IMG/VR virus record: IMGVR_UViG_2563366954_000001
Reading direction: 5' to 3' (one strand)
From: a virus
Taxonomy: Monodnaviria > Loebvirae > Hofneiviricota > Faserviricetes > Tubulavirales > Inoviridae
DNA: 9,059 nt
In this document: one piece after another, positions 7,773 through 7,803 of the stretch
How the letters are laid out: the number at the start of each line of letters is the position of its first letter
Numbering within the stretch: the stretch's first letter is position 1
Program-made: the position numbers and the translations under genes
The notes under the pieces: generated by a model
What the model was told of the DNA's origin: nothing
The model's database searches: none
The model's input: only the letters and a program-made list of their open reading frames with translations

Positions 7773-7803
7773 AATATTACCCTAGGTTAACTAGGGTAAT
7801 ATT
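7773..7803. repeat. Perfect inverted repeat, 13-bp arms with 5-bp spacer (AATATTACCCTAG-GTTAA-CTAGGGTAATATT)
   Basis: Read directly from sequence: arms 7773-7785 and 7791-7803 are exact reverse complements. Lies 4 nt after the stop of the 4-TM ORF and upstream of the 367-aa ORF. Confidence 0.8.

Follow-up and report, generated by a model that had tools for sequence, protein, structure and literature searches.

Filamentous phages of the CUS-1/Ypfφ type, which are assigned to the CTXφ class (PMC4246890), integrate at dif as CTXφ does, and unrelated ORFs located next to the regulator gene differ between CUS-1 and Ypfφ (PMC4266046; PMC4246890). In these phages, an RstR-like regulator is followed by unrelated, variable attL-proximal ORFs, i.e. 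orf1/orf1a and YPO2271/YPO2272 (PMC4266046). The genes considered here occupy the same position in a window of 9,059 nucleotides (the whole stretch of DNA that was analysed; IMG/VR record IMGVR_UViG_2563366954_000001), but in the window only the distal gene is variable. Neither this distal gene, which encodes a 367-aa protein and is referred to below as the cargo gene, nor the perfect palindrome found upstream of it is mentioned in the published descriptions of CUS-1 and Ypfφ (PMC4266046, PMC4246890).

The palindrome, AATATTACCCTAG-GTTAA-CTAGGGTAATATT, is 31 bases in length, is assigned to neither strand and extends from 7773 to 7803, with its left arm (AATATTACCCTAG) at 7773-7785, a 5-nt spacer or loop (GTTAA) at 7786-7790 and its right arm (CTAGGGTAATATT) at 7791-7803. 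It begins three bases (TAT) after the TGA stop codon (7767-7769) of a gene for a four-TM (4-TM) protein, and the next gene starts 68-80 nt 3' of it (first ATG at 7871, RefSeq start at 7883). The coordinates and the pairing of all 13 arm positions agree with the preliminary description, which had reported a perfect 13-bp inverted repeat with a 5-bp GTTAA spacer. Only 4 of the 13 pairs are G-C and the stem is AT-rich at its base. No other short-loop inverted repeat in the window is perfect over such a length. The earlier judgement that such a repeat is unlikely by chance in 9 kb was also borne out. In dinucleotide-preserving shuffles, in which perfect stems closing loops of 0-10 nt were measured, a 13-bp perfect stem was obtained in none of 300 shuffles of the whole window (maximum 12, once) and in one of 1000 shuffles of the AT-rich segment 7701-9059, figures that would overstate the improbability of a neutral origin, since template-switch replication errors make perfect palindromes in one step. 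The palindrome thus exceeds chance and is non-random. As RNA, the 42-nt palindrome segment folds at -17.7 kcal/mol (z = -5.4), and as minus-strand single-stranded DNA the palindrome gives a centroid fold of -10.8 kcal/mol (z = -4.0).

Among described elements, the palindrome resembles REP-type hairpins, such as that between malE and malF in E. coli. Intercistronic hairpins of this type work by blocking 3' exonucleases and separating the upstream and downstream messages. The palindrome is likewise a stable stem-loop without a U-tract, located just past a cistron within an operon, and would be expected to block 3' exonucleases in the same way, giving differential expression of the upstream and downstream genes. 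It differs from REP/BIME elements in having no REP consensus, in being single-copy and in its perfect stem with an AT-rich base. The possibility that it is itself a REP/BIME element was rejected, given its one copy per prophage unit, its occurrence in 17 of 5426 E. coli genomes and the lack of a match to Rfam or any other family. The palindrome is instead a new instance of an ordinary, known kind of hairpin.

The window is a complete CUS-1/Ypfφ-type (CTXφ-class) filamentous prophage of E. coli that is bounded by the chromosomal dif site and possesses a gII/gV/coat/Zot/secretin module, an RstR-like regulator and integration at dif. Pfam matches in the window comprise Phage_CRI, G2P_X_C, Putative_G5P, Zot, Secretin and HTH_3. 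The minus strand encodes a rolling-circle replication protein (5580-6632; Phage_CRI and G2P_X_C), a G5P single-strand-binding protein (5251-5568; Pfam), small coat-type proteins, a Zot-family protein and a secretin. A 570-aa ORF on the same strand, annotated as a hypothetical protein and one in which Pfam found nothing, would be gIII judging from gene order. The plus-strand unit consists of the genes for a 148-aa HTH_3 (RstR-like) regulator (6804-7250), which is the first gene of the unit, the 140-aa 4-TM protein (7347-7769) and the 367-aa cargo protein (7871-8974, or from the RefSeq start at 7883). In the divergent control region between the replication and HTH genes, an imperfect inverted repeat with 27-nt arms (74% complementary) was found at 6702-6758; it is likely the operator region of the RstR-like repressor and bears no sequence relation to the palindrome. 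The window starts with ACATTATGCGCACC, which corresponds in reverse complement to the XerC arm of dif in E. coli, and in complete genomes the window adjoins hipBA.

The identical phage has been assembled as a 9565-bp circle in strain TUM14759 (NZ_CP128883.1), and a second inovirus backbone carrying the cassette is present as a tandem duplication in E. coli REF2 (L002:1-17809). The duplication and the free circle fit rolling-circle production from tandem prophages, as in CTXφ. The Zot/gI gene of the window (2130-2648, minus strand) specifies 172 aa, compared with 341 aa both in prophages that are otherwise nearly identical (L001) and in the circle (L039). The shortening corresponds to a 507-bp in-frame internal deletion, owing to which this prophage copy is probably unable to assemble virions.

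In the preliminary description, the palindrome was placed between two cargo genes. However, the 4-TM protein is present in all 22 related IMG/VR inovirus contigs at 88-100% amino-acid identity, and also in E. coli sister prophages, so that its gene belongs to the conserved phage backbone rather than to the cargo. When the sequences following the 4-TM stop codon were compared across relatives, at least 12 different continuations were found. The slot is empty in L035 (2918-2950) and L036, in which only GCCTTAAA separates the 4-TM stop from TTGGTTCGCACAATGACG, the dif-like site. These empty variants define the cargo slot to the base (7770-8980 in the filled window), and the variable slot runs from the 4-TM stop codon, its left edge, to the dif-like site at 8981. 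In variants of the L004/L026 type, the next gene begins 28 nt past the 4-TM stop, and all filled variants that were followed as far as their end have one and the same dif-like sequence as the right edge. The window ceases to be homologous to the other variants within the last 4-TM codon (TATTATTG|A vs. TATTATTG|GTAA), four bases from the stem base of the palindrome, and the G+C content falls at ~7770 from ~50% to ~28-30%. The end of homology, the slot comparison and the G+C step together identify the palindrome as the first feature of a cargo cassette at 7770-8974 (plus strand), which consists of the palindrome, a 67-nt AT-rich leader and the 367-aa gene and whose boundaries were drawn by comparison with other slot variants and empty slots.

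The palindrome therefore does lie at a cargo boundary and a composition step, as had been proposed. The further proposal that it marks a general site of cargo insertion or recombination did not survive the comparison of cargo boundaries in related prophages. At least 11 other cargo variants, as well as the empty slot, share the same boundary and lack the palindrome, which is thus not a general cassette-boundary or recombination site. With integron attC sites and the Xer/dif-like sites of the CTXφ class it has in common that it can form a hairpin, that it lies at a cassette edge and that the element containing it enters the chromosome as folded single-stranded DNA. Unlike attC, it is missing from all other cassettes of the slot and has no R/L boxes or extrahelical bases, and an attC-like cassette-boundary site was rejected because the empty slots, as well as at least 11 other junctions, do not contain it. 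It also shows no resemblance to dif and has no paired 11-bp XerC/XerD-type arms, so a role as a Xer/dif-like attachment site was likewise discarded; the real dif-like sites are located at 8981-9007 and at the window ends. Two further candidates were set aside, namely an inovirus packaging signal or minus-strand origin (sister prophages that share the backbone do not have the palindrome) and an IS200/IS605 end, which would call for subterminal hairpins at both ends and a Y1 transposase (only one hairpin is present, it has no further copy, and the cassette encodes no transposase).

The dif-like site that forms the right edge of the slot, GGTTCGCACAA-TGACG-TTATGCTAAAG (8981-9007, plus strand), is conserved beside every cargo variant and beside cargo homologues in other elements. 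It is followed by a strong stem-loop, GGCCGCTGCG...CGCAGCGGCC and then TTTT (9009-9043, plus strand; -29.1 kcal/mol), which forms the tip of the inverted repeat of attP. The plus-strand operon has its real terminator in this stem-loop, the only canonical one of the unit, which lies 3' of the cargo. A second dif-like site, CAACATAACGAGTCGC|ACATTATGCGCACC, is formed when 9044-9059 is joined to 1-14. The two dif-like sites (8981-9059 plus 1-14) are inverted and flank the -29 kcal/mol hairpin, which is the layout of the CTXφ attP1/attP2 forked hairpin, and ~70 bp of this dif-like/hairpin region recurs at ~91% identity on 488 plasmids, most of which are conjugative.

A 47-nt query around the palindrome was found in 17 of the 5426 complete E. 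coli genomes, always at 100% identity, and the cargo gene (at least 80% coverage) was found in 17 E. coli genomes with the same accessions, indicating strict linkage of the palindrome to its cassette. Carrier strains include FDAARGOS_1261, SCU-101 and TUM14759. Palindrome and cargo gene occur together on two phage backbones, i.e. that of the window and that of REF2, the latter differing in its structural module and encoding a 60-aa protein where the window has the 148-aa HTH regulator. Substitutions between these types amount to 1.2% in the 4-TM gene, 1 of 67 positions in the leader, 1.9% in the cargo gene and 0 of 31 in the palindrome. The lack of changes in the palindrome is uninformative on selection, as only ~0.5 substitutions would be expected over its 31 nt at 1.2-1.9% flank divergence. 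A metagenome scan for cargo homologues yielded three more identical copies and no variant palindrome; all 17 genomic and four metagenomic copies are identical. Since every copy is identical, covariation provides no evidence on the palindrome. The cassette is young and nearly clonal (17 genomes, 98-100% identical).

The 23-nt core, TTACCCTAG-N5-CTAGGGTAA, gave one unrelated match in IMG/VR, a T/A-flanked hairpin, and one match in 185,579 GTDB species-representative genomes, located in a Gemmatimonadota MAG and taken as chance; apart from these two, the core is absent from both collections. Among the plasmids searched, only the phage's own circular form contains it. Searches of phage records with the whole window and with the 131-nt leader found nothing, and no donor context for the cassette was found in IMG/VR, GTDB, plasmid or phage-record searches. 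At E ≤ 1, no Rfam family matched the window, and the relatives were likewise without an Rfam match.

Hairpins without sequence similarity to one another recur at intercistronic positions of the plus-strand unit. In L033 and L034, a perfect 9-bp stem with a GAAA loop (-14.5 kcal/mol, no T-tract) lies four nt past the 4-TM stop and 5' of a 29%-identical cargo homologue. Hairpins are also present upstream of cargo homologues in other dif-linked elements, namely L008 (followed by T7; -13.9 kcal/mol), L011 (followed by TTTT; -11.1 kcal/mol) and L010, L013, L041 and L046 (without a T-tract; -17.9 kcal/mol). The hairpins of L008 and L013 each share part of their 3' arm with a reasonable -35 hexamer; the promoters predicted there for the cargo homologues were read directly from the sequence as TTGAAA-16-TAATAT and TTGAGC-16-AATAAT, respectively. 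Within the window, another hairpin, ACGTGCAGT...ACTGCACGT followed by TCTTTATT (7279-7307, plus strand; -13.1 kcal/mol), is located between the HTH and 4-TM genes. It is likely a partial terminator or attenuator and was missed by the pattern scan because of its 9-nt loop. Slot variants of the L003, L004, L024, L031, L037 and L038 types have no hairpin past the 4-TM stop, which indicates that a hairpin at the palindrome's position is not required by the phage.

A conserved 68-nt element of three hairpins, absent from the window, was detected in relatives (L035:2386-2453, L013:2579-2646, L049:1347-1414, L007:5820-5887, L028:2921-2988 and L008:5586-5653), and in L025, L028, L030 and L032 it directly follows the 4-TM stop. 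Its first hairpin has the form CCNNGG-GAAA-CCNNGG with four pairs showing compensatory changes, the second (GTTCGGGTGTCACAGAACCCCGAAC) is nearly invariant, and the third is CCGC-TTC-GCGG. The element is always intergenic, shares its strand with the regulator and cargo genes, and precedes cargo or small genes in dif-linked elements. Of the 5426 E. coli genomes, 689 contain it, and 429 of its 790 places are on plasmids; on the one plasmid examined (L052), it is located between a frameshifted ISNCY transposase gene and an STM4504-family gene. No Rfam family matched it, and it may represent an undescribed structured RNA or single-strand DNA signal. A covariance model of the element finds no copy in the window, and hence the palindrome is not a diverged copy of it.

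Neither the cargo protein nor the 4-TM protein has a Pfam, PADLOC or NCBIfam match. In its AlphaFold2 model (pLDDT 80), the cargo protein contains two TM helices, each followed by a beta-sandwich domain, and the fold search returned only generic Ig-like/carbohydrate-binding-module (CBM) matches; the prediction is thus of a membrane protein with beta-sandwich domains rather than of one that binds DNA. With 21 clusters, the family is small, and it is unannotated. Its loci include 7871-8974 of the window and those in L007, L008, L010, L011, L013, L014, L041, L046 and L049. In most contexts read to the downstream flank (the window, L007, L008, L011 and L013, and less clearly L010), the family member is the last gene before a dif-like site and hairpin; among these contexts are different inoviruses, plasmid-borne modules and chromosomal islets. 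The nearest homologue, in L007, is 76% identical, and its upstream region is non-homologous and lacks the palindrome.

Promoter-like sequences near the palindrome were also inspected. A -35 region overlapping the palindrome had been suggested for the cargo gene, but the corresponding TTAACT-18-TAAATT scores no more than 8 of 12. Within 7700-7882, the highest score for a promoter-like element instead belongs to TGATATAAT (7767-7775, plus strand), a perfect extended -10 (TGnTATAAT) that is made up of the TGA stop and the first bases of the cassette and overlaps the left arm. It is the only perfect TGnTATAAT in the window. If this candidate element functions as a promoter, a start near 7782 would put the palindrome at about -9 to +22.

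Our preferred, though tentative, reading is that the palindrome works as a nucleic-acid structure rather than as a protein-binding site, forming an intercistronic RNA stem-loop that would hold off decay and shield the cargo from read-through. Plus-strand transcripts from the regulator promoter would run through the HTH and 4-TM genes into the slot; the 28-nt gaps of the L004/L026-type variants leave no room for a promoter and the sole canonical terminator lies past the cargo, which argues that the slot is transcribed from upstream. On such read-through RNA, the palindrome would fold into a 13-bp stem-loop three bases past the 4-TM stop, which would block 3'-to-5' exonucleases and leave the upstream message with a stable 3' end. 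Some pausing or weak termination may also result, and any termination would be weak given the lack of a U-tract. The AT-rich cargo gene would thereby be uncoupled from transcription of the phage regulator and be expressed mainly from its own promoter in or next to the palindrome. The stable fold so close to the stop codon, the unrelated hairpins at the same place in relatives and the second hairpin past the HTH gene all speak for this arrangement, and no trans-acting factor is needed for it, because the cargo protein is not expected to bind DNA and the palindrome is 100% identical on a backbone lacking the HTH gene. Several hairpin-less slot variants and the 76%-identical homologue without the palindrome count against it, and if transcription starts at TGATATAAT, the cargo transcript would lack the left arm. 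A canonical intrinsic terminator that ends the HTH/4-TM transcript, in one or both directions, would share with the stem-loop reading the position directly past a stop codon, as do Rho-independent terminators in general, and the equivalent hairpins of L008 and L011 do carry T-runs. The palindrome differs from such terminators in that its tails on the plus (CAAATACT) and minus (ATATCAAT) strands contain no T-tract and its stem has only four G-C pairs, and it was not called in the terminator scan of the window. It is thus not a canonical terminator of the bidirectional kind once suggested, and this explanation is extremely improbable.

Binding of the dyad by a dimeric DNA-binding protein of the host or another element, which would repress a cassette promoter, is unlikely, even though the palindrome would occupy the classic position for steric repression if TGATATAAT is the extended -10. 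The dyad is perfect over 13 bp including its AT-rich outer bases, it overlaps the sole perfect TGnTATAAT of the window, and an AT-rich foreign cargo gene would plausibly need control; with its central base pair and this overlap, it recalls lac O1-like operators lying over -10/+1. However, one TGnTATAAT is near the chance expectation (0.61 per window, with at least one in 93 of 200 shuffles), and half-sites in the window are at chance level (7 found, 6.8 expected). Natural operators are seldom perfect over 13 bp, and the palindrome differs from typical palindromic operators in this longer perfect symmetry as well as in having no second site and no cognate regulator found. The cassette encodes no DNA-binding protein, and the 23-nt core has only the two chance-like matches mentioned above. 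The adjacent HTH regulator, which had been put forward as the binder, is an unlikely one, since the palindrome is 100% identical on the REF2-type backbone that lacks the HTH gene, and the control region of the regulator (6633-6803) contains no half-site and has a different inverted repeat. In the trp operator core, CTAGTTAACTAG, CTAG half-sites are 4 bp apart. The core of the palindrome, CTAG-GTTAA-CTAG, is similar to CTAG-TTAA-CTAG but has its half-sites one base too far apart (5 vs. 4), and on this basis a TrpR operator was rejected; the MqsA, HipB and NarL boxes were dismissed for misfits in spacing or sequence. A neutral relic, i.e. the product of a template-switch (quasipalindrome-correcting) error or a former terminator or operator of an unknown donor with no selected role in the phage, is possible but doubtful. 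It accords with confinement to one young, nearly clonal cassette, with the sister phages and the closest cargo homologue managing without the palindrome, and with identical copies that make a conservation signal impossible. CTAG is a rare tetranucleotide in E. coli, and its two copies in the palindrome fit a foreign origin. Equivalent positions in relatives also hold hairpins, however, and some physical effect is hard to avoid, since a -17.7 kcal/mol hairpin three bases past a stop codon will form whenever RNA reads through, as well as in the single-stranded phage DNA. A role in single-stranded DNA, with the hairpin as a priming, packaging or recombination site or as a mark of cassette capture by illegitimate recombination at its base, is very unlikely. 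Such a role would suit a CTXφ-class inovirus, since the biology of this class relies on single-stranded DNA in folded form (PMC4246890), as well as the stable DNA hairpin (-10.8 kcal/mol) and the homology break four bases from its stem. Sister phages with 98% identical backbones and other cargo nevertheless exist without the palindrome in hundreds of genomes, so it is not an origin or packaging signal; all variants, empty slots included, use the same left boundary, which is therefore set by the end of the 4-TM gene and not by the palindrome; and the dissimilarity to dif and Xer sites also counts against it. There is only a slim chance that the palindrome is a structure-specific capture or priming hairpin moving the AT-rich gene between dif-integrating elements, or a host-regulator operator over a fitness gene of extraintestinal E. 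coli prophages.

The comparative results carry more weight than the palindrome itself. The cargo slot is now precisely defined, in empty and filled states, the 367-aa membrane-protein family is placed against a dif-like site in most of the contexts read, and a separate, covarying three-hairpin element outside Rfam has come to light. If the stem-loop reading of the palindrome is true, it would show how a foreign AT-rich gene can be accommodated in a filamentous prophage's regulator operon and yet not be driven by it. This arrangement would be mechanistically ordinary, but knowing it would help to explain how CUS-1/Ypfφ-type phages of pathogenic E. coli express their cargo.
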